Shown here: one piece after another, positions 8,303 through 46,881 of the stretch
Position numbering within the stretch: the first letter of the stretch is position 1
Layout of the letters: each line of letters starts with the position of its first letter
From: Trinickia sp.
GTDB taxonomy: Bacteria > Pseudomonadota > Gammaproteobacteria > Burkholderiales > Burkholderiaceae
DNA: 64,000 nucleotides
Assembly (NCBI RefSeq): GCF_051953955.1
Contig: NZ_JBQCIF010000015.1
Span: 77,017-141,016, forward strand
Direction of reading: 5' to 3'
Translations under genes and position numbers: made by a program
The notes under the pieces: model-generated
Told to the model about the DNA's origin: nothing
The model's input: the letters and a program-made list of their open reading frames with translations, nothing else
Database searches by the model: none

Positions 8303-9154
8303 GTGAAAACACTCGATTTGGATGTGCTGTCGATGGTCGTGGCCGTCGCCGATGCGGGCAGCTTCGTGCGCGGCGCGGCCCTCGTCCATCGCTCGCAGTC
8401 GGCCGTGAGCATGCAGGTCAAAGCCCTCGAGCAGGCACTCGGCAAGCCCCTGTTCGAGCGGCACCCACGCAGCGTCGTGCCGACGCAGGAGGGCCTCGTG
8501 CTGGCCGATTACGCGCGGCGCATGCTGGCGCTGCGCGACGAAGCGTGGGCCGCGCTCGTGCATCCGGACGTGAAGGGGCGCGTAGTCATCGGCGTGCCCG
8601 ACGACTACGCGTCATCGCTGCTGCCGCCCGTTCTGCGCAAGTTTTCGGCGATCTACCCCAAGGTGGAAATCCAGGTGATCGGGCTGCCCAGCCACGCGTT
8701 GGCTCCGCTCGTGAACGAGGACAAGGTCGATCTGGCCTGCATGACGCGCGTCAAAGGCATCCGCGGCAAACGGGTGCGGCTCGAGCCGATCGTCTGGGCC
8801 GGCGCGCCGCGCGGGTCCGCTCCCTGGCGAGAGCGCCCCCTGCCGATCGCCGTATTCGCCTCGGGCAGCGTCGCGCGAGAGAACGCGATTCGCGCACTCA
8901 AGCAAGCGCGGATTGCCCACCGAACGTCCTACGAGAGCCCAAGCCTGCTCGGTCTCTTCAGCATGGTCGAAGCGGGGCTCGCCGTGGCGCCGATCGCGCG
9001 CTGCGCCATGCCTGAACGGTTCGTCGAGCTAGGGCGCGCCCACGGGCTGCCCGCCCTGCCGCCGCTGGAAATCGTGCTCGCCCGCAGCGCACGGTCGATG
9101 CGCCCCGAGTGCGACTTTCTCGCCGAGCAGATACTTCAGGAATTGAGGATTTGA
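8303..9154 (+). CDS. LysR-family transcriptional regulator
   Basis: N-terminal wHTH 'LDLDVLSMVVAVADAGSFVRGAALVHRSQSAVSMQVKALEQALGKPLFER', followed by a LysR substrate-binding-like remainder. Confidence 0.9.
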   Translation: MKTLDLDVLSMVVAVADAGSFVRGAALVHRSQSAVSMQVKALEQALGKPLFERHPRSVVPTQEGLVLADYARRMLALRDEAWAALVHPDVKGRVVIGVPDDYASSLLPPVLRKFSAIYPKVEIQVIGLPSHALAPLVNEDKVDLACMTRVKGIRGKRVRLEPIVWAGAPRGSAPWRERPLPIAVFASGSVARENAIRALKQARIAHRTSYESPSLLGLFSMVEAGLAVAPIARCAMPERFVELGRAHGLPALPPLEIVLARSARSMRPECDFLAEQILQELRI

Positions 9155-9196
9155 AGACGCCGAGGCGGGCTGAAGACGCGAGGCGGAAGACGAGGC
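9153..9196. repeat. Three imperfect tandem copies of GAAGACG(C)(C)GAGGCGG in the gap between two convergent genes
   Basis: gaagacgccgaggcgg (9153-9168), gaagacgcgaggcgg (9172-9186) and gaagacgaggc (9186-9196), read directly from the sequence. Confidence 0.45.
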
Positions 9197-9220
9197 ATCG
9201 CCCGCTTTGTTTCCCGGCAG

Positions 9221-9526
9221 TCAGAACAACGCGCGCTGACGCTGCTGGGCCATCGAAACGACGTCGAGTTCGTCCAGACGCTTGCGGGCCTTGGCCAAAT
9301 CGTGCACTAGCTGGCGTTGCAACCAGGTTTCGGCGCCGCCGCCGAACGCCTTGTCGAGACGCAGCGCCATCTCGGGCGAAATGCCCGCCTTGCCGCTCAG
9401 GAGATTGGTCAGCGCCTGGCGGCTCACGCCGAGCACCGCCGCCCCCTCGGTCACGCTGAGGTTGTGCCGCTCGAGGCAGAGCTGGCGCACCACTGCGCCC
9501 GGATGAATGTTGTCGGTATCGGCCAT
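9221..9526 (-). CDS. higA: HigA-family antitoxin (XRE-type HTH)
   Basis: 101 aa. '[66 protein letters not shown]' is the canonical HigA/VapI antidote pattern. Confidence 0.8.
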
Positions 9527-9707
9527 GGGCCGAAACCATAGCGGCGAAGCGCTAGTCCGTCAATCGACAAGTGCCGATTGTCTACCGCGCGCATCACCGC
9601 ACCGCACGGCGGATTGACAGAATCGAGGCGTTCGGCTCAACGCGAGTTCGAACGCGCGTGCCGCCCCGTCTCGCATCGCATGGCGGCGCATTGCCGCGGC
9701 CACGCGA

Positions 9708-29188: not shown

Positions 29189-29212
29189 TTCTTGAACGGC
29201 TGCGAACCGACG

Positions 29213-30388
29213 ATGAACTTCGAACTGACCGAAGAACAGCGAATGCTGGCTGACACGCTCTCGCGCTTCGTCGCGCAGGAGTACGGTTTCGCGGCGCGCG
29301 AGCGCATCGCGCGCTCACCCGAAGGTTTCGATCGCGCGATGTGGCGACGCTTCGGAGAATTGGGGGCCATCGGCGCATTGTTCGCGCCCGAGCACGGCGG
29401 CTTCGGCGGCACCGGCGACGACATTGCCATCGTCTTCGAGCATCTCGGGCGGGCGCTCGTCGCCGAGCCGTTCTTGTCCGCACTCGTTGCCGGGCGCGCC
29501 ATCGCGCTGGCAGGCAACGCTCGCCAACGTGTGTGCTTGACGCCACTGATCGACGGCGAGACCGTGCTCGCGTTCGCCCATGGCGAACCTGATTCGCGCT
29601 ACGAACTGAGCCGTGTTGCGACGACGGCGACGCAAACTAGCGACGGCTGGCGCTTGAATGGAACGAAAGCCGTCGTGCTCTTCGGCGAGGCGGCCGAGGG
29701 CTTCGTCATCTCCGCGCGCACGAGCGGCGCCGTCGATGCCGAGCGCGGCATCACGCTCTTTTGCGTGCCGCGCGACACAGCAGGGCTCACGCTGCGCGGC
29801 TATGCGCTGATCGACGGCGGCCGCGGCGCGGAACTCGTGCTGCGCGACGCCACGCTGCCTGCCGAGGCCCTGCTCGGCCAATTGGACGATGGCTTCGACA
29901 CGCTCGAAGCGGCGCTCGGCTGCGGCGTGCTGGCGCTCTCGGCGGAAGCGCTGGGCGCAATGGAGGCGACCTTCGCGGCAACGCTCGACTATCTGCGCAC
30001 GCGCCGCCAATTCGGCACGCCAATCGGCAGCTTCCAGGCCCTGCAGCATCGCATGGCCGACGCTGCGATCGATCTGGAGCAGGTGCGCTCCGCGGTGATC
30101 AATGCGGCGTCAGCGCTCGAAGGCCCGCGCATTGCGCGAGAACGCGCGCTTTCCGCGGCCAAGTACACGGTCGGCAGAGTCGGGACCCACCTGTCTCGCG
30201 AAGCGGTGCAACTGCACGGCGGCATCGGCATGACGTGGGAACTGCCGCTCTCGCATTATGCGAAGCGGCTCGTGATGATCGATCATCAACTCGGCGACGA
30301 AGACCATCATTTGGCGCGCTACATCGCGCTGGGCCGTGCGCCCTGCACCGCGGACGGCGTGAGCGAAGCGACCGCCTGCTCGCGGTAA
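29213..30388 (+). CDS. Acyl-CoA dehydrogenase family protein (second, tandem)
   Basis: I prefer the ATG at 29213 ('MNFELTEEQRMLAD…', a typical ACAD N-terminus), 24 nt after the previous stop. 'RQFGTPIGSFQALQHRMAD' is the ACAD middle/C-terminal signature. Confidence 0.85.
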   Translation: MNFELTEEQRMLADTLSRFVAQEYGFAARERIARSPEGFDRAMWRRFGELGAIGALFAPEHGGFGGTGDDIAIVFEHLGRALVAEPFLSALVAGRAIALAGNARQRVCLTPLIDGETVLAFAHGEPDSRYELSRVATTATQTSDGWRLNGTKAVVLFGEAAEGFVISARTSGAVDAERGITLFCVPRDTAGLTLRGYALIDGGRGAELVLRDATLPAEALLGQLDDGFDTLEAALGCGVLALSAEALGAMEATFAATLDYLRTRRQFGTPIGSFQALQHRMADAAIDLEQVRSAVINAASALEGPRIARERALSAAKYTVGRVGTHLSREAVQLHGGIGMTWELPLSHYAKRLVMIDHQLGDEDHHLARYIALGRAPCTADGVSEATACSR

Positions 30389-31218
30389 GCGCGTAACGCG
30401 TCTCCTGTGGCTGCGTCGGCGGGAAAAAAGGCCTCGATTGCGAGCTCGGAGAGCGTCACGTCGACAGGTGAGCCGAATACGGTCGTCGTGCTGAAGAACG
30501 ACAGCACCCCAATATCGGTGCGCAGCCGAAACGGCACGACGACGTCCGCGAGCGGTGCAGGCTCGCGACTCGGTTCGAGATCGGCGCCGCTGGGTGCCGG
30601 ATAGGCGGCCAACTCTTCGACGAGCGCCGCAAGCGTGGCGTCGCCACTGGCGTGTGCCTGGCGCTCGACTCTCTGAAGCGAATGCGCGCGCCAGCCGGCC
30701 CAATCCACGAGATGCGGCGCGAGCCCATCGGGGTGCAGCGAAAGACGCAGCACGTTGACGGGCGGTTCGAGCAATCGCGGATCGGCGCGTGCGACGAGCG
30801 GCGCGAGGGCACCGTTCGCGGCCACCATCGTCCAATGCCGATCGATCGCGAGGGCCGGATACGGCTCGTGTCCTTGCAGCACGAGTTGCACGGCGTCGCG
30901 CGCGGCATCGAGTTGCGGATCGGACAGCGTCCGCTCCGCGTAGAGCGGCGCGTAGCCGGCGGCAACGAGCAGCGCATTGCGCGCGCGCAGCGGCACGTCG
31001 AGTTGCTCAGCCAGATGGATGAGCATTTCTCGGCTCGGCTGGGCGCGGCCCGATTCGACGAAGCTCAAATGCCGCGTCGAGATCTGCGCTTCGGTGGCCA
31101 GCACGAGCTGGCTCATGCGTCGGCGCTGGCGCCATTCCCGCAGCAAATCGCCCACGGAGCGGCTCGCGCGTTGAGTGACGGGGGGCGCGGCGCGTGCTGG
31201 GGTAAAGGTCTGGTTCAT
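30319..31218 (-). CDS. MmyB-like XRE-family transcriptional regulator
   Basis: 'LLREWRQRRRMSQLVLATEAQISTRHLSFVESGRAQPSREMLIHLAEQLDVPLRARNALLVAAGY' is the XRE HTH plus MmyB-type extension. Its 3' end overlaps the convergent ACAD gene by about 70 nt. Confidence 0.8.
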   Translation of the reverse strand: MNQTFTPARAAPPVTQRASRSVGDLLREWRQRRRMSQLVLATEAQISTRHLSFVESGRAQPSREMLIHLAEQLDVPLRARNALLVAAGYAPLYAERTLSDPQLDAARDAVQLVLQGHEPYPALAIDRHWTMVAANGALAPLVARADPRLLEPPVNVLRLSLHPDGLAPHLVDWAGWRAHSLQRVERQAHASGDATLAALVEELAAYPAPSGADLEPSREPAPLADVVVPFRLRTDIGVLSFFSTTTVFGSPVDVTLSELAIEAFFPADAATGDALRAYREQAVASLTPSAVQGARPSAM

Positions 31219-31906: not shown

Positions 31907-32581
31907 TCAATCGGACCCGTACCTCGGCGACCTCGGACCATACAACAACCCGTTCGGCGGGCCGGCCGACAATAAACGGCGGCTGGTCAGCCCCGCGACG
32001 TCATGGGCTTCGTCCGTCAGCGAATGGGCAATCTGCTTGACCGCGGACTGCACGAGCATGCCGACAATTCCGAAACCACCCACGTTCACATTGGTGCCGA
32101 GTTCCTTGCCGGTCGCGTGGCCCGTGCCTTGCCATAGCACGTCGCCCGCCTTCAGGTCCACGAGCTTCGCCGATGCCGTCACGATCGTCGTGCTGTCGAT
32201 CACCTGATAGACGGAGCCGTACTGCGAGACCTTCGCGTACAGCGCGGCATCCGCGCCGAAGATCTCGCGCAGCTTCGCGGGCGGCACGCCCTGAATCTCG
32301 GCCGCGTTGGTCAGGCCGTTTTGCTTGAACGTCTCATCCATAACCGCGACTGGAACCACGTAATAGCCCGATTCGGCGAGTGGTAGCGTCATCTGTGACA
32401 ACATGCCGTAAGTGGCCGCGACGTCGGATGTTTCGTTGATAGGCGGCAACACGAGAATCGAGCGCGGCTGGCTCTTCTTGAAGGCCGTGTAGTCGGGGCG
32501 CGTGACGGTCGGCGCACAAGCGCTCAGCAGAGCAGCAATCGACAGCACTGACAGCAGCTTCAATGAAATGGTCTTGAACAT
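31907..32581 (-). CDS. DUF799 (GNA1162-like) lipoprotein
   Basis: Lipobox 'ALLSAC'. 'SILVLPPINETSDVAATYGMLSQMTLPLAESGYYVVPVAVMDETFKQNG' matches my memory of the DUF799 family. Third gene of a lipoprotein operon. Confidence 0.75.
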   Translation of the reverse strand: MFKTISLKLLSVLSIAALLSACAPTVTRPDYTAFKKSQPRSILVLPPINETSDVAATYGMLSQMTLPLAESGYYVVPVAVMDETFKQNGLTNAAEIQGVPPAKLREIFGADAALYAKVSQYGSVYQVIDSTTIVTASAKLVDLKAGDVLWQGTGHATGKELGTNVNVGGFGIVGMLVQSAVKQIAHSLTDEAHDVAGLTSRRLLSAGPPNGLLYGPRSPRYGSD

Positions 32582-32591
32582 GGCTGGCGTC

Positions 32592-32951
32592 TCACTCCTG
32601 AGTGGCTTGTTTCTTCTTCATCAGGAAGTCCATAAAGGCCGTCGACTCCGCAAACAGCTGTCTTTCAGCCTGCAGTTCCTGTTCGGCACGATGCTCATCC
32701 CCAACGCTCACGTAGAGCATGCCGAGATGCGCATGGAAACCCGGAGGCGTCTGATTGCCTTTCCCGCGGATTTCTTGCAGTGCCTTTTCAAGCGCGTCAA
32801 TCTGCTCCTGCGGTGACGTCTTTCCTTTGAAGTATTCGTATACCTGCGGCTGATAGGCGTTCCACTGATAGAGCGGCGGCGTAGTCGTCGTTGCACAGCC
32901 CGAAAACAGTAACGCAGCCGTCGTCGCCGGCAGCCAAATACCCTCTTTCAT
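32592..32951 (-). CDS. DUF4810-like small lipoprotein
   Basis: Lipobox 'LLFSGC'. 119 aa and helical/TPR-like ('…HAHLGMLYVSVGDEHRAEQELQAERQLF'). It sits between the CsgG-like and DUF799 genes, as is usual for this family. Confidence 0.65.
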   Translation of the reverse strand: MKEGIWLPATTAALLFSGCATTTTPPLYQWNAYQPQVYEYFKGKTSPQEQIDALEKALQEIRGKGNQTPPGFHAHLGMLYVSVGDEHRAEQELQAERQLFAESTAFMDFLMKKKQATQE

Positions 32952-32996
32952 CTTCTTTTACTCTCAGGTTATGTAGTAGAACGAATCGTATGGTGT

Positions 32997-33674
32997 CTAT
33001 TGCGCTGTTTTCAGCGCGCCCGCGTCGACCTGCTCGGCGAGATGGTTGACCGCTTGCTGAATCGCGAGGTCGAGCACTTTGCCGTTGAGCGTGGAGTCGT
33101 AGCTCGCGGTACCGCCGAAGCCGATGATTTCGCGATTGGAGAGGCTAAACTCGCCTGCTCCCTGGCTCGACGCGATCACTTCGGATGTGATTGTGTCGAC
33201 GATGTTCAAATTGACCTTCGCATACGCGACTTGTGTCTTACCGCGGCCGAGGATGCCGAACAGCTCATGATCACCGACGTCTCTGCGGCCGAACTCGGTC
33301 ACGTCGCCAGTGACGACATAATTCGCGCCTTTGACCGCCGGCGCCTTGTTCATGAAACCCGCTTCCTGCCTGATCTCCTCGAGATTCTCGCGATCGAGCA
33401 CGTTGAAGCGCCGGCTCTGCTGCAGGCGCGTAACGAGAATTGTCTTCGCCTGGCCACCGAGACGATCGATGCCATCGGAGAAGATGCCGCGCATGTAGCT
33501 CGAACGGTTATCGAACTTGCCGACAGCGATCGGGAGGGGCTTGCCCGCGTAGGGCTTCTGTGCGCTGCCGACGACAGGCACGTCGAGCGTGCGAGACGAT
33601 TCGGTTGCGCACGCGCTCAACCCGAGAGCGAGAACGGCTGCGGTTATAACTGGGTACTTTCCACGTCTACTCAT
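32997..33674 (-). CDS. CsgG/HfaB-family outer-membrane lipoprotein
   Basis: Lipobox 'ALGLSAC'. 'PIAVGKFDNRS…GGQAKTILVTRLQQSRRFNVLDRENLEEIRQE…' resembles the CsgG secretion-channel family. 'gaggaa' lies upstream of the ATG. Confidence 0.75.
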   Translation of the reverse strand: MSRRGKYPVITAAVLALGLSACATESSRTLDVPVVGSAQKPYAGKPLPIAVGKFDNRSSYMRGIFSDGIDRLGGQAKTILVTRLQQSRRFNVLDRENLEEIRQEAGFMNKAPAVKGANYVVTGDVTEFGRRDVGDHELFGILGRGKTQVAYAKVNLNIVDTITSEVIASSQGAGEFSLSNREIIGFGGTASYDSTLNGKVLDLAIQQAVNHLAEQVDAGALKTAQ

Positions 33675-33758: not shown

Positions 33759-33964
33759 TCACACGACACGCCCTATTGCCCGCCGTTGGGCTGTCGTATC
33801 GCACGCGGAGTACGCTTGCCGGCCGCCGGGCCGGCCATAGCCTTGTTGGAGCGAAGTACAAATCCAGGAATAGTCGAGCGTCAATCCATTTCGTTTGGCA
33901 CATGCTTCCTTGCGTCGATCGACGTCCTTTCTACCGAATGAAGCCGCCGATCAAACCGATCCGC
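33759..33964 (-). pseudogene. Orphan cdiA pretoxin/CT-junction fragment (frameshifted, truncated)
   Basis: It starts about 26 nt after the cdiI-candidate stop. It translates to ADRFDRRLHSVERTSID…, versus the parental ADRFNRQLAPVERASIDRRKEAYAKRNGLTL. A 4-nt deletion shifts the frame, and the corrected frame stops at 33759. Confidence 0.55.
33875..33964. repeat. Copy B of a 90-94-nt direct repeat (partner at 35108-35201 inside cdiA)
   Basis: Hand alignment gives about 77/90 identical positions plus one 4-nt gap. The ends are shared: cgagcgtcaatccatttcg… and …aaaccgatccgc. Confidence 0.85.
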
Positions 33965-33990
33965 CCGTTTTGTGGGATGACTGCGCATGG

Positions 33991-34215
33991 TCAAGAACGC
34001 CGCCCCATGCCCAGGCACGCAGCGAAGACAAATGCGCACATCACCCCTCCCAGAAGTAAGCCGTAGACAAGGATGCCCTTAGCATCCTGTCGGCTCCATT
34101 CATACGCAACGCCGTAAAATAGTTGTACGAGATACACAACAGAAATCTTTATCGACGCCACTCCCAGCAATGAAATAACTAGGGCATACACCGTGAGAAG
34201 TAGAGGCCGCGTCAC
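33991..34215 (-). CDS. cdiI: Candidate CdiI immunity protein (74 aa, two predicted TM helices)
   Basis: The GTG start overlaps the cdiA stop (GTGA). Two hydrophobic stretches are present: 'LLLTVYALVISLLGVASIKISVVYLV' and 'GILVYGLLLGGVMCAFVFAACLG'. GC is 45-47% in the two 60-nt lines I counted. Confidence 0.6.
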   Translation of the reverse strand: MTRPLLLTVYALVISLLGVASIKISVVYLVQLFYGVAYEWSRQDAKGILVYGLLLGGVMCAFVFAACLGMGRRS

Positions 34216-37200
34216 TTTTTCCCACCCTCACCGTTTCTGACATTATTGATTCCTGCGGCTCCGAATTCCGATCCAATGCTGCCACCAACCGAAGAACCGA
34301 TTGCTGGCACGTTGTTAGGCGTAAATAGCCTCAATCCAGATGATCCCGACCATTTTCCAACATCGGCCCAACCGAAACCGTTGATCGTCGGTTTCGTGAG
34401 TGATCCGACTCCAGCTTCGACCCCCTTGCCCACACCGTAACCGAACATTGAGCCCGCACCGCTTACAGCCCCACCGAGTACGACACTGTCGCTCTTTCCC
34501 TGCAAGAAGTTGTTGAGCGCCGTTGTTGTCGCGCCTCCGAGGATGTTGAGTCCCACGTTGCTAACGAGGCTGCGATAGATGGAGCCGGCGTAGCCAGTCC
34601 CGAACGCGCCGACTACGTCCACTGGATTGATTGTCCCATTCTGCATGTACTGCGCTCCCGCGTTGATCGTAGCTGTAATTACTCCACTACCGACCGACGA
34701 GGCCAGTGCGCTCGAACCGAGCGCACCGTTCGTGCTCAGGATCGGCGTTCCAGGCAATGCGGCAATCGGTCCGCCTACCGCTATCGTCGCCGCGCCAACT
34801 GCCGCCCCGATTGTGCCCTTCGTGTAGGCATCGCGATACGCCTGCTCGCGATTCACCGAATTCGCGATGTCTTGCGACCCCGGCACGTTCATGCCGGCGC
34901 CGTTCGCGTAATGCCCCGCGTACATACTCGGATTCGCCTTCTGATCAGGCGTCGCATAAAACATATAGCCGGGCCCGCTATTGCCATCAGCCGGGAGCAT
35001 TCCGCGTTCTTGACGCAAGAATGCCGCAGCGCGCTCATTCCATGGCCCGGGTGAGCCGTTCTGAACCATCAGATTCGCTTGTGTTAGAAGCTCCTGTTCC
35101 GCTTGTGCGAGCGTCAATCCATTTCGCTTGGCATACGCTTCCTTGCGTCGATCGATCGACGCCCTTTCCACCGGAGCCAACTGCCGGTTAAACCGATCCG
35201 CAGCAGCAGCCGTCAGCGCCCCCGTCGAGCCACCGACCAACGCGCCCGCGCCACCGGCCAACACGTTCGCGGTGACGTTACCAATGAGTTGATCGACGTT
35301 CGCGTTACCCGTCGGCCCCGCCTCCTTGATCGATCTCGCGAGCGCATCGAACTTCGGCGCGAGCTTAGCCGACATCCCCGCGCCCGCCGCTCCACCTACT
35401 GCGCCCAGTCCGCCGCCGGTCAATCCCCCCGTGAGCGCACCGCCCGCGATATGCAGCTTCCTCCGGTTCGTACCGCCCTCTGCCCAGCTTGCCGCCTCTT
35501 GCTGATATTGCACCTTCAGCTTCGGATCGGTTTCAGCCTTCGCCGCCGTGAGCGCTTCATCCCGCTTTTTCTCGGCATACTTCCCAACCTGCTTAGCAAC
35601 CGCTTCCGCCGCCGCCTGCGCCGCGTCGATCAAATCTGCTTGGTTGCTCAAGGTGGCCTGCAAATCCGGCAGTTGATCGACGATCCCGTTCAGGTTCGTC
35701 GCATCGCGGTTGAGCATCGCAATGTCTTGCTTTTGGTTGGCCTCATCGGTGATCGTGATGCCGCCCGCGCTTATCGCACTCCTCGTGAGCGCCTCACTGC
35801 TTCCGCGCTCGCTCACCGCCAGCGGCAGCGCGCCACCTGAGTTCTTGCCCGAGCTCGGCCCATGCGTCGCGTAGTTGCTGCCACCATCGCCGAAACCACC
35901 GCCCGCGCTGATCCCAACGCTGCGCGCGCTGTAACTTGAACTGTTTTGCACGTCCGAGAACGAGAGCGTGCCCGTCCTCAATCTGTTTTTATCTGGGTCC
36001 GCCGTGCTCGCGATATACGTCCCCTTCAAATCGGTGTTGCCCTTGACCGTAATGTCGAAACCGCCGTCGCCCACGGCAATGCCCGACTGCTCGCCTACAC
36101 CGGCGTAGTTTCCGCTTGCGCGACCACTGCGAGCGCTGAAGCTGGCGCTGCCTCCGCCCTGGCTCACGCTGAAGCCGCCGCCCACGCTGCTCTGGCGCGA
36201 GGCGCTGCGCACCGTGTCCTGCTCCGATGCGATATTCAAATCGCCGCCGATGTCCCCCATCACCCGCTTCGCGCTCACATTGGCGCCCACGATGTTCGTG
36301 TCGCCCCCGCTCTTGATCGTCACCGTGTTGCCCGCCTGAACATGCGTGTTGTTGTGCGTCACCGCATCGCTGTTCGCATCGCCCTTTGCCCGCGACATCG
36401 CAGCCGATACGCCCCAACCACTCGATCCAAACGACACACCGGCGCTCGCACTCGTCGACTCGTTCGTGCTGCGCGTCTTATCCGTATCGGTGCTGCTCAG
36501 CAAATTGACTCGATCGGTCGCTTGCAACAGCACGTCACCCGCCGTCACCGCCGAGCCCTCGATCGTCACGTTGCCTTGCCCCGCCGCCTTCTCGCCCGTC
36601 GCGATGAATGCAGCGCGTCCACCGGCCCTCACCGTGCTGCCGCTCTGCCGCGTACTGTCCTCGGTGAACGTCGTCTTGCTGCGCGACGCACCGAAGCTCA
36701 GTTCGATCTTCGCTTCAGGCTTGCCATTGCCGTTCAAGGGACCGCCCATCGCCCCCGCGGCGCCCGCCAGATCGGCCACGCCGCCGGCTGCCGCCATCGC
36801 ATGCAGCGCCGCCGCGCGCCCATCCCCACTGGCTGCCGCCCCCCGTGCCTGCCGATTGACGTTCTGGATCGCATCGATCACGGGCGACTTCACCGCCAAG
36901 GTGAAGCCCGAGCTTTTCATCTCGTGCGTTTCCTCATGATGGCGCGCCGTGCCCGACGCCTGCACCTTGACCTCCTTGGCGATGCCCGTCACGTCTTGCG
37001 CCGCTAGAATGTCCGAACCCGTCACATGCAGGGTATTGCCGGCTTGCAGCACGACGCTGCCGCCCGTGCTGCCGATCAAGCTGCCCCGTGCGCCCTTCAT
37101 AGTGTCGCGGCTCGAATCGCTCGTTTGATGCGTGCCGTAAGAGATCCCCGCGCCGGCGCTGCCCAAGCCCGACTTCTTGACCTCCTTGTAGTGGTATTCG

Positions 37201-42113: not shown

Positions 42114-43058
42114 TTATTCCTCGAGGTCAGCCAATACCGGCGAAGCGACGCTGGCGGCCGCTTCTTGCTCGACCTGCTGCAACGCGGGTCGGGCGCAACT
42201 GAACACGGCAATACCGTTGATCAATCCAACGGTCGGCGCGTGCACGCCATACGACACGACGAGATAGGGCTTGGATGCATCCGGCCCGAAGAAGGTCGTG
42301 GCCAAGGAAGATCGGGTTGCCCCCGTCAAAACCATCGCTCCCAGGGAGACATCGTCGGTGAACGTTTGATCGTGATCGCTGCCAATGGAATAGCGCAGCT
42401 TCAAGGATGCAACGTTGCGGGATTGGCCAAACGGATCGGTGCCTTCCGTCAGATCGGCCGAAGCGCTAGCCAGGGCGCCGGGGGCCGTGTTGCCGTCACT
42501 CGCGGTCGGGCGCGTTGCGGCTGCCAATTCACAGCGCATCCCCTCGCCGACCGTCACAGGCTCGGAGAGCGGTGCGCCGAGCGCCCAAACCCGACCTTGA
42601 TTGACGTTGTATGAATACCCTGCCGAATCGCTGCCCGCCGTCCAGCGCCCAATGGCGAAGTGCCCATTGCCCCCGATATCGGTAACGATCCCCCGGGAAA
42701 GGCTGAGCGCCCCTCCATCGAACGGCAATGTCGTATAGGCGCCCGGTGAGATCGCTTGCAACACGGACGGGTTCTCTTCGGTTCCGATCCGGGCCTTGCC
42801 TTGGGGCATCGAACCATCGGCACTCCAAGTCACCGGTGGGTGCAGCACCTTCACGGTAGTCAATTCGCTCGACAGGGGCGTTGCCTTCCCTTCCGCCGCG
42901 ATGTGCGCAGTTGCCGCGCTCTCCTGCGCCTTAGCGGGTGCCGGGTTAGCCTCACCGCCGCCCCCGCCTCCGCACGCCGCGAGCCCGAACGCCGATAACA
43001 CGGCAGCGGTCGCCGCCGCCAGCTTGAAGAACATGCGCTGCTTGTTCCTATCTTCCAT
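42114..43058 (-). CDS. Lipoprotein of unknown function encoded between cdiB and cdiA
   Basis: Signal peptide plus lipobox 'AVLSAFGLAAC', followed by a poly-Gly linker (CGGGGGGE). The remainder looks beta-rich. The stop is 6 nt before the cdiA start, and the last codons (GAGGAATAA) supply the cdiA SD. The start is ATG 43058 or 43034. Confidence 0.7.
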   Translation of the reverse strand: MEDRNKQRMFFKLAAATAAVLSAFGLAACGGGGGGEANPAPAKAQESAATAHIAAEGKATPLSSELTTVKVLHPPVTWSADGSMPQGKARIGTEENPSVLQAISPGAYTTLPFDGGALSLSRGIVTDIGGNGHFAIGRWTAGSDSAGYSYNVNQGRVWALGAPLSEPVTVGEGMRCELAAATRPTASDGNTAPGALASASADLTEGTDPFGQSRNVASLKLRYSIGSDHDQTFTDDVSLGAMVLTGATRSSLATTFFGPDASKPYLVVSYGVHAPTVGLINGIAVFSCARPALQQVEQEAAASVASPVLADLEE

Positions 43059-43144
43059 ACGTCTATCGCCTTTATTGCCACTTGGTTAAGGGACGGTGCC
43101 GTGTACGCCAAGCGCACGAAGCGAGCACCGGTTGATGAATCCGC

Positions 43145-44884
43145 CTAAAACAGCGAACTGATTTGAAATAAGAACGTGGGTGAACCGCTTACCCCTACCG
43201 GCTTGGATAAGGGCCAGCCCACCGAGACGTCGTAGTGGATCGATGCTGCCAAGACGCTTTTCGACGTGACTTGCCCCCGCATTCCGAGCACGGCGCCCAC
43301 CAACGTCTGCCCCGTGAGAAACTCGGCCGCCGGGCCGCGAACCCGGCCGGCATCGATGCCGCCATAGATGGCCTGAGTGCCGATTTCCGTCGGCACGTAC
43401 CAATCCAATTCGTTTGAAATGACCCAGCCGCTCTCGGCGGCCAGCGTCGTTTGTTGGTCGAAGCCGCGGACCGAATAACGTGTGCCAATCGCGAAATAGT
43501 TGGCTGGCGTGAGCGGCGTTCGTGCGTTTTGCGTATTCCAATCGAATCGGTACGAGAACGGCTGATCGCCTACCCTGAAGGGCACCTGCATTCCGGCGCT
43601 CGCCAACGCGACTTCTGTCTTGCCGTCGAAGTCGGGTTCGCCCAATACCATGCCGATGTTTCTGGACCATCCAGGCACCGACGCGCGCCACGCCAGCCCA
43701 CCGGTGAACATGACGTCGCCGACGTATTGACGATGAGACACGCCCAACTCGTAACCGAGGACGTCGCGCGTCTGGGCCGGCAACTCGACGCCGTCGTAGG
43801 TATTGCCGTTGATTTCGCGATACAGATCGCCGCGCACTTCGGTTTGCGCCTGGGCATTGCGAAAGACGACGGCAGACAAGCCGGCCTGGAGCCTCGATTG
43901 CACGCCGCTGTAGAGCACGGGGCCTTCGAATCCCGGAACAGACTGCTTGTACCTCGACCGACTCGCGCTGGCCGCAAGCAACGCGTAGCCGATCGGCACG
44001 TTGTAGTTGGCGAGGACGGACTGGTTCCCCTCGCCGGGAGCGCCAAAGTTCGCGTTGGTCGTGCCGGCGAGCTGCAGTTGGTCGTATAGATGGAGCGGCG
44101 AATCGTAGGTGAGCGATCCGAATAGCGATGTCTTGCCCGTGGCATTCAAGCCTGCGTTGTCGACTCCGACGATCGCGTGCCAGCGCTTGCCGGTTCCCGG
44201 ACGCAACACGAGTTCGGACTCTCCCGGATTCGCGCCCGGAGCGACATCGAACATCGCATCGGCTTGGGACTGCAGGCGGCGCACATTCTCCAGCCCTTGA
44301 TCGATGTCTCGCTGATTCAACAACGCGCGGGCGGAGGTGGGCAACGCCATGCGCAACGAGCCGATCGCCGGTTCGCCAGTTCGAACGCGACTGACGAGCC
44401 CCGGCAACAAACGCAGCGTCAGCCTTCCGGATTGCAGCGACTGCGCGGGCGCGAGCAAACGCGACGTGACGTACCCGCGCTCGATCAGTGCCCTATTGGC
44501 GGCATCCTGAATCCGAGCGAGCGCGGCCTTGCCGACGCATTGGCCCGCTATCGGCTGTAGGAAGCGCGCAAGCCACTGGAACTCGCTCTCTTCGAGCACG
44601 ACTTCCCTGATCGGGAAACAGGGTGTCTCGACCGGCAGGCTCGCCACGCTTTTCAGCAGTGCCGGTTCGCCAGCCGGCGATAGGACCCTCGGCTGAGGGT
44701 TCAGTGCTTTCGCCGCTTCGATCTGCTGCTGTTGGAGACGCTGGATTTGAGCGCCCGGCGGTCCTTCCGCGGGCGAAGCGACGTGCGCACTCGCCACCGC
44801 GCTCGCGCACGCGCAAGCGATCAGTGCGAATGCTTGCCGCCAAGTAAGCGCGCCCTTACGGCGAAATACGCAGATGGAGTGCAA
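43145..44884 (-). CDS. cdiB: TpsB/CdiB outer-membrane transporter (ShlB/FhaC/HecB family)
   Basis: 579 aa with a signal peptide ('FALIACACASAVASAHV'). POTRA-like 'CVGKAALARIQDAANRALIERGYVTSRLLAPAQSLQSGRLTLRLLPG'. The C-terminal beta-barrel ends '…TFLFQISSLF'. Confidence 0.9.
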   Translation of the reverse strand: MHSICVFRRKGALTWRQAFALIACACASAVASAHVASPAEGPPGAQIQRLQQQQIEAAKALNPQPRVLSPAGEPALLKSVASLPVETPCFPIREVVLEESEFQWLARFLQPIAGQCVGKAALARIQDAANRALIERGYVTSRLLAPAQSLQSGRLTLRLLPGLVSRVRTGEPAIGSLRMALPTSARALLNQRDIDQGLENVRRLQSQADAMFDVAPGANPGESELVLRPGTGKRWHAIVGVDNAGLNATGKTSLFGSLTYDSPLHLYDQLQLAGTTNANFGAPGEGNQSVLANYNVPIGYALLAASASRSRYKQSVPGFEGPVLYSGVQSRLQAGLSAVVFRNAQAQTEVRGDLYREINGNTYDGVELPAQTRDVLGYELGVSHRQYVGDVMFTGGLAWRASVPGWSRNIGMVLGEPDFDGKTEVALASAGMQVPFRVGDQPFSYRFDWNTQNARTPLTPANYFAIGTRYSVRGFDQQTTLAAESGWVISNELDWYVPTEIGTQAIYGGIDAGRVRGPAAEFLTGQTLVGAVLGMRGQVTSKSVLAASIHYDVSVGWPLSKPVGVSGSPTFLFQISSLF

Positions 44885-44994: not shown

Positions 44995-45483
44995 TCAATC
45001 CCCCACCGAGATCGTCAGCGTCTCCTTGATCTCTTCCATGACGACATAGCTCTTGGACTGCACGGCGCCGGGCAGCTGCAGCAGGATGTCGCCGAGCAGC
45101 TTGCGGTAGTCGGCCATCTCGCCGATGCGCGCCTTGATGAGATAGTCGAATTCCCCTGAAACGAGATGGCATTCGAGCACTTCGGAGATCTTATTCACTT
45201 CGCGCCGGAACTGATCGAACATGTTGCCGCTCTTGTTGCCGAGCGTGATCTCGACGAACACGAGCAGCGCGGCGCCAAGCTGCGCCGGATCGACCCGCGC
45301 GTAATAACCGGTGATGACCTGGTCGCGCTCCATGCGCTTCACGCGCTCGATGCACGGCGTCACGGTCAGCCCCACCCGTTCGGCCAGGTCCTTCATCGCG
45401 ATGCGGCCGTCCTCCTGCAACACCTTCAATATCTTGCGATCGAGCTTGTCGAGCTTACGAACCGGTTGACGTTCTGTTCTCAT
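44995..45483 (-). CDS. lrp: Leucine-responsive regulatory protein (Lrp/AsnC family)
   Basis: 'LDKLDRKILKVLQEDGRIAMKDLAERVGLTVTPCIERVKRMERDQVITGY' plus a RAM domain. I prefer the ATG at 45483 (MRTERQ…). Confidence 0.9.
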   Translation of the reverse strand: MRTERQPVRKLDKLDRKILKVLQEDGRIAMKDLAERVGLTVTPCIERVKRMERDQVITGYYARVDPAQLGAALLVFVEITLGNKSGNMFDQFRREVNKISEVLECHLVSGEFDYLIKARIGEMADYRKLLGDILLQLPGAVQSKSYVVMEEIKETLTISVGD

Positions 45484-45594
45484 CGCGCATCCATCGTTTT
45501 TAAACCAAAAATCCAAAAATTACAGGAACAAAAACTGCTTTTGTAGCAATAGTATAGCGACATCAACTGGACTTATCGGTGTTTGGGAGCAACC
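45484..45594. promoter_or_regulatory. AT-rich divergent lrp/dadA control region
   Basis: A 111-nt, A/T-rich gap (…tttttaaaccaaaaatccaaaaattacaggaacaaaaactgcttttgtagcaatagtatagc…) between divergent lrp and dadA. Lrp-type control of dadA is well known. No individual site was called. Confidence 0.4.
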
Positions 45595-46881
45595 ATGCGA
45601 GTCATCGTTCTGGGTAGCGGCGTTGTCGGCGTAACGAGTGCCTATTACCTGGCGCGCGCGGGGCATGAAGTCACGGTCGTCGATCGCGCAGCGGGTCCGG
45701 CGCTCGAAACGAGCTTCGCGAACGCCGGCCAGATCTCGCCCGGCTATGCCTCGCCGTGGGCGGCTCCCGGCGTGCCGCTCAAAGCAGTCAAGTGGATGTT
45801 CCAAAAGCACGCGCCTCTCGCAATCCGTCTGGACGGCACTCAGTTCCAGTTGCGCTGGATGTGGCAGATGTTGCAAAACTGCACCGCCGAGCGCTATGCC
45901 GTCAATAAAGGCCGCATGGTGCGCCTCGCCGAATACAGCCGCGACTGTTTGCAGGCATTGCGCGCCGATACCGGCATCCAATACGAAGGCCGTACGGGTG
46001 GCACGCTGCAGGTGTTTCGCACGCAGCAGCAACTCGACGGCGCACAAAAAGACATCGCCGTGCTGAAGGAAGCCAACGTCGCGCACGAACTGTTGAGCGC
46101 CGCCGAACTCGTGCGGGCTGAGCCGGCACTCGCAGCCGTCTCTCACAAGCTCACGGGCGGCCTGCGACTGCCGGGCGACGAAACGGGCGACTGCCAACTG
46201 TTCACCACGCGCCTGGCAGCGCTCGCCGAATCGCTCGGCGTGACGTTCCGCTTCAATACGCCGATCGACGCGCTCGAAATGGCCGGCGGCCGAATCGCCG
46301 GCGTGCGTTGCGGCTCGGACACGCTGCGCGCCGACGCTGTCGTGGTAGCGCTCGGGTCCTACTCCACGCAGTTGTTGTCGAGCATCGTGAAGATTCCCGT
46401 CTATCCGCTCAAGGGTTATTCGATCACGGCACCGATCGTCGATGCGGCCAAGGCCCCTGTGTCGACCGTGCTCGACGAAACGTACAAGATCGCGATCACG
46501 CGCTTCGACGATCGCATTCGCGTCGGCGGCATGGCCGAAATCGTCGGCTTCGACAAGAAGCTGCGCCAGGCGCGTCGCGAGACGCTCGAAATGTGCGTCA
46601 ACGATCTGTTCCCCGGCGGCGGCGATACGTCGCAGGCATCGTTCTGGACGGGGCTACGCCCGATGACGCCCGACGGCACGCCGGTGGTCGGCCGCACGCC
46701 GGTGTCGAATCTGTTTTTGAACACGGGGCACGGCACGCTCGGCTGGACGATGTCGTGCGGTTCAGGCCAGCTGCTCGCCGATCTCATCTCGGGCCGCCGG
46801 CCGGCGATCCAAGCGGACGATCTCTCGGTTCATCGCTACCTCGGCGAACTCGGCCGCACCCCGCAACCCGCTTACGCGTAA
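45595..46881 (+). CDS. dadA: D-amino-acid dehydrogenase
   Basis: '[31 protein letters not shown]' FAD fold. Full-length similarity to DadA (…[14 protein letters not shown]…[11 protein letters not shown]…). Confidence 0.95.

Follow-up and report, generated by a model that had tools for sequence, protein, structure and literature searches.

Our analysis concerns a stretch of 64,000 nucleotides from Trinickia sp. (assembly GCF_051953955.1, contig NZ_JBQCIF010000015.1, positions 77,017 to 141,016), here called the window, and within it a gene, which we call lip, that encodes a lipoprotein (Lip) and lies between the cdiB and cdiA genes of a contact-dependent growth inhibition (CDI) locus. CDI systems are usually described as consisting of three parts, CdiB, CdiA and CdiI. 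Our results give good support to the view that lip is the fixed third gene of one class of CDI operon.

The lip gene and the CDI locus around it

The gene lip is real and is under purifying selection. Its reading frame opens with ATG, and the encoded N-terminus, MEDRNKQRMFFKLAAATAAVLSAFGLAAC29, has the positive n-region, the hydrophobic core and the lipobox ([LVI][ASTVI][GAS]C) of a lipoprotein signal; six glycines come next, then a stretch rich in Ala, Pro and Glu. When 5.8 billion proteins were searched, 59 homologous clusters came back, of which those with names are all "hypothetical" or "putative lipoprotein transmembrane" and all from Burkholderiaceae, with identities to Lip of 47-90% in Burkholderia, Trinickia and Paraburkholderia and of 30-41% in Cupriavidus and others. 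An alignment of 36 members has 27 invariant columns, including Cys29, the motif G-x-G-x(3)-IGRW, QG, TxPT, C176 and C288, the last two being the sole cysteines of Lip besides Cys29; L26, G30 and G31 are nearly invariant, and in the domain that we call the handle G130, G132, I136, G137, R138, W139, Q154 and G155 are invariant. A chance GC-rich open reading frame (ORF) is rejected on this conservation and on the pairwise ratio of nonsynonymous to synonymous substitutions (dN/dS), which is 0.13-0.34 for lip against 0.07-0.14 for TpsB, the two-partner secretion (TPS) transporter family to which CdiB belongs (disregarding some TpsB values that were NaN owing to faulty alignment), and 0.03-0.17 for the TPS domain.

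It is well supported by these sequence features that Lip is an outer-membrane-anchored lipoprotein, as predicted. An earlier sequence-only reading of this DNA had proposed a lipobox followed by six glycines and an Ala/Pro/Glu linker, had argued for outer-membrane sorting from the lack of Asp at position +2, and had named the flanks cdiB and cdiA. All three proposals find support: Cys29 is invariant in the 36 homologues; positions +2 to +7 are all Gly, with no Asp at +2 (the retention rule of E. coli, which may not be that of Burkholderiaceae); and the flanks encode a genuine TpsB and a CdiA-like protein with a polymorphic C-terminus. A fourth proposal, that lip is coupled to cdiA, stands for the window, where the TAA stop of lip (42116-42114) is 6 nt from the GTG start of cdiA (42107) and where the last two sense codons of lip, GAGGAA, lie 10 nt upstream of that GTG as a plausible Shine-Dalgarno sequence. 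Elsewhere the gap is 50-95 nt. The window protein shares its 26-residue tail after Cys288 with a single relative, of 90% identity, whereas most homologues in the alignment end at or just after Cys288 and some carry a shorter, different tail; since the tail is specific to the lineage, so is the tight coupling. No terminator-like site was found on the minus strand between cdiB, lip and cdiA.

The association of lip with cdiBA is robust. Our set of genome loci numbers 28, of which 13 come from Burkholderia, Trinickia and Paraburkholderia and carry a lip of at least 40% identity, and 11 of these 13 have tpsB-lip-tpsA in one order and orientation. A reverse search that started from TpsB in metagenomes gave seven loci, five of them with the same arrangement, for a total of 16 cdiB-lip-cdiA loci among the 20 examined in the Burkholderia/Trinickia/Paraburkholderia clade. 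Co-occurrence with cdiB/cdiA, which the sequence-only reading had put forward as a check, thus holds for these 16 and fails in Cupriavidus, Pararobbsia, some Paraburkholderia and Trinickia soli, where homologues stand without TPS genes. The linkage persists though lip has diverged to 47-62% identity; with this identity, compared with 59-71% between the window TpsB and the TpsB upstream of lip in the 11 genome loci, and with its higher dN/dS, lip is the fastest-evolving conserved gene of the island that holds the CDI genes.

In the Trinickia/Paraburkholderia group and in the window this island occupies one chromosomal site, between dadA-lrp on one side and mmyB-acd on the other, with identities of 92-98% for the flanks, 66-71% for TpsB, 62-72% for the TPS domain and 53-62% for lip. 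The brackets in the window are an acyl-CoA dehydrogenase gene with an MmyB-like regulator gene (29192-31218) and an Lrp/AsnC gene with DadA (44995-46881); across Trinickia and Paraburkholderia the bracket genes are 80-98% identical against 50-70% for the island genes, and the site is a hypervariable hotspot. The same island also holds, on the downstream side of the CDI module, three consecutive lipoprotein genes (31907-33674, minus strand), CsgG-like (PF03783), DUF4810 and GNA1162-like (PF05643), which T. soli lacks at its version of this site.

The CDI labels rest on several features of the flanking genes (Table 1). CdiB matches ShlB (Pfam, E 1.7e-68), POTRA_2 and POTRA_3. When the C-terminal 800 residues of nine orthologous TpsA proteins are aligned, conservation reaches as far as DRFNRQL, and beyond it the sequences diverge altogether; this toxin boundary is neither VENN nor the Nx(E/Q)LYN of Burkholderia (PMC3415462). 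The part of cdiA that encodes the C-terminal domain has a GC content of 0.58 against 0.65 for the rest, and the domain gave no match to Pfam and none to PT-VENN. It is Gly/Ala-rich and glycine-zipper-like (residues 2304-2631; 34212-35198, minus strand), is about 66% identical in the Burkholderia theae locus L009 and has more distant counterparts in L006 and L011; possibly it is a membrane-permeabilising toxin. The GC content of the 74-residue ORF downstream, 0.52, compares with 0.65 for the window, and in other loci the same slot holds different, unrelated small hydrophobic ORFs; the protein is a candidate, and a likely one, for the CdiI that counters a membrane-acting toxin. In L002, L003 and L005, too, cdiA is followed by orphan DRFNRQL modules. 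The flanks thus comprise what is expected of CDI genes, namely a TpsB, a TpsA with TPS domain and filamentous haemagglutinin repeats, a polymorphic C-terminus and a downstream candidate immunity gene, and the labels cdiB and cdiA are reasonable because of the domains, the divergence after DRFNRQL, and the candidate immunity ORF and orphan modules.

Table 1. Positions of the features discussed, counted from the first letter of the window or, where a locus is named, within that locus
Feature	Position	Strand	Basis or remark
cdiB/tpsB, outer-membrane transporter	43145..44884	minus	Pfam; 579-aa ORF, true start may lie further in
cdiB-lip spacer, 86 nt	43059..43144	minus	Read from sequence; no terminator-like site found on minus strand
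lip, lipoprotein gene	42114..43058	minus	314 aa plus stop; ORF and translation, 59 homologous clusters, dN/dS
lip signal peptide and lipobox, residues 1-29, LAAC with Cys29	42972..43058	minus	Conservation in 36 homologues
lip Gly/Ala/Pro-rich flexible tether, residues 30-52	42903..42971	minus	pLDDT 43-55 in AlphaFold2; length and sequence variable among homologues
lip N-terminal beta-rich handle domain, residues 53-161, 8 strands	42576..42902	minus	AlphaFold2 strands, pLDDT >90
lip C-terminal 8-stranded beta-barrel, residues 174-289	42192..42539	minus	AlphaFold2 of residues 160-292; Foldseek; A3 alignment
lip lineage-specific C-terminal tail, 25 residues; last codons GAGGAA, the plausible cdiA Shine-Dalgarno	42117..42191	minus	Homologue alignment
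cdiA-like tpsA, 2631 aa	34212..42107	minus	ESPR, TPS and Fil_haemagg_2 domains (Pfam)
DRFNRQL toxin boundary, CdiA residues 2304-2310	35178-35198	minus	Alignment of orthologues
Candidate cdiI, 74-aa protein with two hydrophobic segments	33991..34215	minus	GTG start overlaps cdiA stop (AAGTGA); GC 0.52
Putative orphan cdiA-CT remnant, short ORF	33881..34039	minus	ADRFDRRLHSVERTSIDARK resembles CdiA boundary region ADRFNRQLAPVERASIDRRK
Slam/cargo/TPR/FecR cluster	L033 1566-6601; L037 3-5791; L035 2-5641; L034 1-2675
Plasmid lip homologues	L046 (pMOL28, NC_007972.2) 8734-9555; L020 10013-10834

Predicted fold and remote relatives of Lip

Searches with Lip in Pfam give nothing at E <= 1, PF01298 included; those in NCBIfam give noise at the level of the signal peptide, and neither Lip nor its family profile has a match to PDB sequences beyond such noise (phmmer and hmmsearch). 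AlphaFold2 with the family alignment gives for Lip a mean predicted local distance difference test score (pLDDT) of 85 and a predicted template modelling score of 0.77, with residues 10-50 (signal peptide and tether) disordered, residues 53-161 in eight strands and residues 174-289 in a further eight; these last eight return unchanged when residues 160-292 are modelled alone (pLDDT 93.8). This gives good support to a build of tether, handle and eight-stranded barrel, as in the surface lipoproteins (lobes of TbpB, HpuA and fHbp) of the Slam-dependent type XI secretion system (T11SS). The handle bears two motifs of the superfamily, GNGxFAIGRWTxGSD and NQG, which recur in the Slam-linked and multi-lobe relatives described below, and the C-terminal body runs SLATTFFGPDASKPYLVVSYGVHAPTVGLINGIAVFSC288. 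In the model Cys176 lies at the start of barrel strand 1 and Cys288 at the end of strand 8, and since these positions adjoin in a closed antiparallel barrel, a disulfide that closes the barrel is likely.

The sequence-only reading had likened Lip to the barrels of TbpB, fHbp and HpuA and had proposed AlphaFold and Foldseek as a check. As a structural search this failed to retrieve them, and no superposition on these or on hemophilin barrels was obtained: with the full model and with the barrel alone, Foldseek found no PDB match below E 0.01, the best (E 0.012 and above) being lipocalins, PsbO, avidin and odorant-binding proteins, which are eight-stranded up-and-down (meander) barrels, at TM scores of 0.36-0.43. 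The resemblance draws on the eight-plus-eight strands, on homology to the Slam-linked family A3 and on the match of that family to TbpB on the "FFGPxA" strand, which the earlier reading had singled out; it is not upheld by Foldseek, by PF01298 or by a Slam gene nearby. The likeness does have a real basis, because the other branch of the Lip superfamily consists of Slam-linked cargo.

That branch emerged from an exhaustive profile search of 1.84 billion representatives, which found 188 proteins at E <= 1e-3, about 35 of them full-length lipoproteins. Among 71 remote members, four match Pfam TbpB_B_D without reaching the curated cut-off (best E 2.9e-4), and five have FecR domains. The bridge is a protein, P0162, that matches the Lip family profile at E 4e-7 and, compared with the profile of the window family (A1), reaches an hhalign probability of 96.8%. 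Its residues 128-213 match TbpB_B_D, and its best PDB match is TbpB 5kkx (E 0.0047), in which 'QGFFAGTSAERAGLAY' of P0162 is aligned to 'GGFYGPKAEELGGWFAY' of TbpB. The family of P0162 (A3) comprises 33 sequences from uncultured Burkholderiales and Gallionella. A1 and A3 align over Lip residues 104-289 (hhalign 98.4%, E 6.7e-15), and this alignment places 'TTFFGPDASKPYLVVSY' of Lip on the strand that P0162 shares with TbpB. TbpB 5kkx is the sole match of the A3 profile in the PDB (E 0.0017), PF01298 appears below threshold in five of the 33 A3 members, and hhalign of A3 against TbpB gives E 0.01 at a probability of 4%; in a merged A1 and A3 profile the TbpB match is lost. At the positions of Cys176 and Cys288 the Slam-linked A3 branch has Tyr and Lys.

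Wherever the upstream DNA is visible, the A3 genes adjoin a Slam gene (PF04575, SlipAM): the two overlap in L037, Slam lies two genes upstream in L033, and a partial Slam lies upstream in L035. A weak relative, L028, also stands with a Slam gene. A TPR/Glyco_transf_41 gene and FecR-domain genes follow the A3 genes. This cluster of Slam (PF04575), cargo, TPR/Glyco_transf_41 and FecR proteins recurs in uncultured Burkholderiales and Gallionella and has the look of a T11SS cargo neighbourhood not yet described. Slam-dependent surface lipoproteins are defined by a lipobox, a handle, an eight-stranded barrel and an adjacent Slam, and the known ones have no common sequence similarity (PMC5449769; also PMC12282271). 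By tblastn, no Slam (DUF560/PF04575) homologue lies within 10 kb of lip in the window or in the 27 related loci L001-L027, and none was found on Burkholderiaceae plasmids. Profile comparison thus gives good support to the placing of Lip, as a divergent member, in a superfamily of betaproteobacteria in whose other branch the genes come directly behind Slam genes.

The same search revealed proteins of 700-2100 residues in which the central part of the Lip profile is repeated two to five times. A compositional artefact was rejected for these large proteins, since in the three multi-lobe proteins that we read the entire module is truly repeated in tandem, every copy with the ending ...GFLxGxxAxxxGxxYxI...ISGAAAFxK. 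P0100, P0101, P0111 and P0094 are among these handle-plus-barrel proteins of two to five copies and have no Pfam domains except a stray Phage_int_SAM_1 in two. Some relatives are fused to FecR domains.

Other homologues are borne by plasmids. Our plasmid collection holds 23 records with a Lip homologue, 16 of them from Cupriavidus and 17 conjugative. On pMOL28 the homologue faces an annotated pilus "adhesin", and on pBVIE01 its context is unrelated to any adhesin. The Cupriavidus plasmid homologues are convergent with a type IVb pilus operon (adhesin, pilin, ATPase and PilN secretin), and upstream of them lie two genes of about 390 residues, one annotated as FlhC family. C. metallidurans CH34 has a copy on both pMOL28 and pMOL30.

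What Lip may do

How could a lipoprotein of this kind have become part of a CDI operon? The evidence gives good support to the view that a module of the surface-lipoprotein type was inserted between cdiB and cdiA in one Burkholderia/Trinickia/Paraburkholderia lineage and was kept there as a third gene, presumably co-transcribed, the operon reading cdiB-lip-cdiA-cdiI with orphan C-terminal modules after it. On the CdiA filament, Lip would dock to the base or to the part that binds the receptor, or else it would dock to the surface ligand that CdiA itself binds, and such docking would tune the presentation of CdiA and the contact between cells. TbpB-type surface lipoproteins pair with an integral outer-membrane protein of their own operon, as TbpB does with TbpA, and by analogy we favour, with slightly more doubt than belief, the reading that Lip is an outer-membrane binding partner of CdiB/CdiA. 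BcpO and CdiC are precedents for additional components in CDI systems (PMC3415462, PMC9086364).

A number of our own results weigh against this reading. Two of the seven metagenome loci, L042 and L044 (TpsB 58% and 64% identical), have tpsA directly after tpsB and no lip, and since such pairs exist, lip is dispensable for that kind of TpsB and TpsA. Conversely, T. soli has only lrp-lip-mmyB at the same site, with an intact lip that keeps its lipobox, and this arrangement is identical in nine contigs from different samples; in L010 an intact lip stands beside decayed tpsB and tpsA remnants. The 14 more distant loci (Cupriavidus, Pararobbsia, some Paraburkholderia) are without TPS genes. The most conserved motifs of Lip are common to relatives outside CDI contexts and therefore cannot be contacts specific to CdiA. 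As to the TbpB-like fold, hhalign found nothing when A1 was compared with a TbpB fragment or with a shallow alignment of Neisseria TbpB (the fragment search had given 14 narrow matches, too shallow for a good profile), the profiles A1 and A4 have no match in the PDB, and TbpB, fHbp and HpuA are absent from the Foldseek top 50 for Lip. Because there are sister cdiBA pairs without lip, a lip that stands alone in T. soli and homologues in non-TPS contexts, we argue that Lip stands apart from the core mechanism of secretion and is of use by itself.

The cdiB-cdiA junctions of L042 (4944-4986) and L044 (472-589) form a natural comparison group for the class that contains lip. In L010 (2744-5733) the order is tpsB fragments, a middle fragment of CdiA and a C-terminal fragment of CdiA directly upstream of lip, which implies rearrangement, and the lipobox there is altered to GFAGC. 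Most of the distant loci are convergent with a type IVb pilus cluster of PilS-like pilin, T2SSF, T2SSE and PilN-family secretin.

The co-variation of pairwise identities, taken over nine loci and 36 pairs, gives r 0.65 between lip and TpsB, 0.68-0.74 between lip and the TPS domain, 0.61-0.66 between lip and CdiA residues 900-1180 (the least conserved central segment), and about 0.1 between lip and the toxin region. That lip follows TpsB and the TPS domain and not the toxin speaks for our reading; the small sample and the genetic linkage of these neighbouring genes, which confounds the comparison, count against it. Lip has clearly no tie to the toxin. The sequence-only reading had suggested a second layer of self-protection; in its toxin-specific form, with Lip as an immunity protein of the CdiI type, this is rejected because lip does not co-vary with the CdiA C-terminus, and the gene moreover lies upstream of cdiA, the cdiI slot being taken by the 74-residue membrane ORF.

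Self-protection of another form is unlikely, though by no means negligible. Here Lip on the surface of the producer would block sibling CdiA, by masking the receptor or by capping the receptor-binding region, and would do so before, and independently of, the toxin-specific immunity of CdiI, much as TraT-type proteins act in surface exclusion during conjugation. Such exclusion would fit the surface-lipoprotein architecture that the model gives for Lip, the rapid evolution of lip and its moderate co-variation with CdiA residues 900-1180, but that correlation is weak and the receptor-binding role of the segment is itself conjectural. It would also fit the retention of an intact lip where cdiBA is lost or decayed (the nine T. 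soli contigs, L010), which resembles that of orphan immunity genes, and the plasmid homologues beside type IVb pilus adhesin and pilin genes, as on pMOL28, 17 of the 23 plasmid records being conjugative. Since those homologues adjoin type IVb pilus genes, the lip family accompanies two unrelated contact filaments. However, lip lies upstream of cdiA rather than with cdiI, its surface exposure is hypothetical and no Slam gene was found within 10 kb, the pBVIE01 context has no relation to any adhesin, and to our knowledge exclusion at the receptor level is not known for CDI. What keeps the idea alive is the sister pairs that lack lip, the lone lip of T. soli, the non-TPS contexts and the pilus-adhesin neighbourhood. 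A broader version, in which a type Vb CdiB/CdiA system has taken over a Slam-cargo-like surface lipoprotein as its third component, to serve on the cell surface as a cis-acting exclusion shield against sibling CdiA or as a co-adhesin, is more doubtful again; in it the plasmid relatives would perform the same exclusion for type IVb mating pili, and in its boldest form CdiB, or a distant Slam, would bring Lip to the surface.

Lip might instead face the periplasm, as a helper to CdiB or as a holder of the C-terminal half of CdiA that stays in the periplasm while export is arrested, a role that we regard as improbable. It would resemble that of BcpO, a lipoprotein predicted to sit in the outer membrane's inner leaflet and required for full CDI in Burkholderia (PMC3415462). 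The window operon has no bcpO and no Slam is encoded nearby, lip lies between cdiB and cdiA, and the invariant long-range pair Cys176-Cys288, which the Slam-linked branch lacks, suggests a protein that folds and is oxidised in the periplasm; yet Lip is four times the size of BcpO with a different gene position and order (PMC3415462), lip persists without cdiBA and sister cdiBA pairs persist without lip, and the nearest relatives outside the Lip family are Slam-linked cargo. Most doubtful of all is that lip is an unrelated passenger, a lipoprotein of general binding function, at the surface or in the periplasm (for a nutrient, a metal or an envelope ligand), with no role in CDI. The varied contexts of the family (alone, on plasmids, with Slam, TPR/GT41 and FecR, or as multi-lobe giants), the independence of the conserved motifs from context and the stability of the lone lip in T. 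soli are what one would expect of a passenger, but a neutral gene in the middle of an operon would not be expected to hold its place and direction in 16 of the 20 loci, which span three genera, at about 50% identity and under purifying selection.

A conserved lipoprotein of about 300 residues encoded between cdiB and cdiA would add a third kind to the CDI accessories, and lip would define a class of Burkholderiaceae CDI loci with the order B-lip-A-I and the DRFNRQL boundary. What is new is a divergent TbpB-like lipoprotein family in a new context, together with a class of CDI locus with a new accessory gene. The kinship with Slam cargo beside a TpsB raises the question by which route Lip, if it is surfaced, would reach the surface with no neighbouring Slam; were CdiB or a distant Slam to surface it, this would be the first link between the type Vb secretion system and the biology of T11SS cargo. 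Moreover, the retention of lip after loss of cdiBA and the pilus-adhesin neighbours hint at receptor-level exclusion, a layer of protection that would be new for CDI. Carriers that can be cultivated include B. pseudomultivorans LMG 26883, B. theae GS2Y, Trinickia sp. NRRL B-1857, T. soli GP25-8 and C. metallidurans CH34.

Lip beside known systems

Reviews list BcpO and CdiC as the only CDI accessories (PMC9086364, PMC3415462), and our text search of the literature found no description of this lipoprotein or of the B-lip-A-I arrangement, in agreement with the statement of the sequence-only reading that it knew of no described CDI accessory of this kind. Like Lip, BcpO is a predicted outer-membrane lipoprotein without a Lol-avoidance signal and an extra component of a Burkholderiaceae CDI operon (PMC3415462). 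The two are set apart by description, BcpO having 73-74 residues and a gene between bcpI and bcpB in the order A-I-O-B (PMC3415462), whereas Lip has 314 residues in the order B-lip-A-I; the bcpAIOB loci moreover have the Nx(E/Q)LYN boundary where the window CdiA has DRFNRQL. The identity of Lip with BcpO is rejected on size and gene position. CdiC of class IV cdiBCAI loci is encoded in the same slot between cdiB and cdiA, and is a cytoplasmic lysine acyltransferase of the HlyC type that lipidates the receptor-binding domain of CdiA (PMC8510554, PMC9086364). Lip, in contrast, has a signal peptide with lipobox and an all-beta fold, with no acyltransferase domain in Pfam or NCBIfam, and its identity with CdiC is rejected on domains and size, gene position alone being a match.

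TraT is likewise an outer-membrane lipoprotein encoded beside the genes of a contact apparatus, and the plasmid homologues of Lip, which stand beside type IVb pilus adhesin genes on conjugative plasmids, recall TraT-type proteins; the analogy is functional and speculative, and we claim no relation in sequence or structure.

The closest comparison is with the Slam-dependent surface lipoproteins. Lip differs from them in that its neighbouring outer-membrane transporter is TpsB and not Slam, in that its family would have its own cysteine pair stapling barrel strands 1 and 8, as the model suggests, and in that it has no direct Pfam, PDB sequence or Foldseek match to TbpB, fHbp or HpuA. With the lobes of TbpB, LbpB, HpuA and fHbp (PF01298 barrel) it shares the lipobox, the Gly-rich tether, the handle and the C-terminal eight-stranded barrel (PMC5449769). 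Moreover, Lip is homologous to the Slam-adjacent family A3, whose sole PDB match, TbpB, covers the "GFF/YGPxAxE" strand, and the two lobes of TbpB have their counterpart in the two to five tandem lobes of the relatives of Lip.

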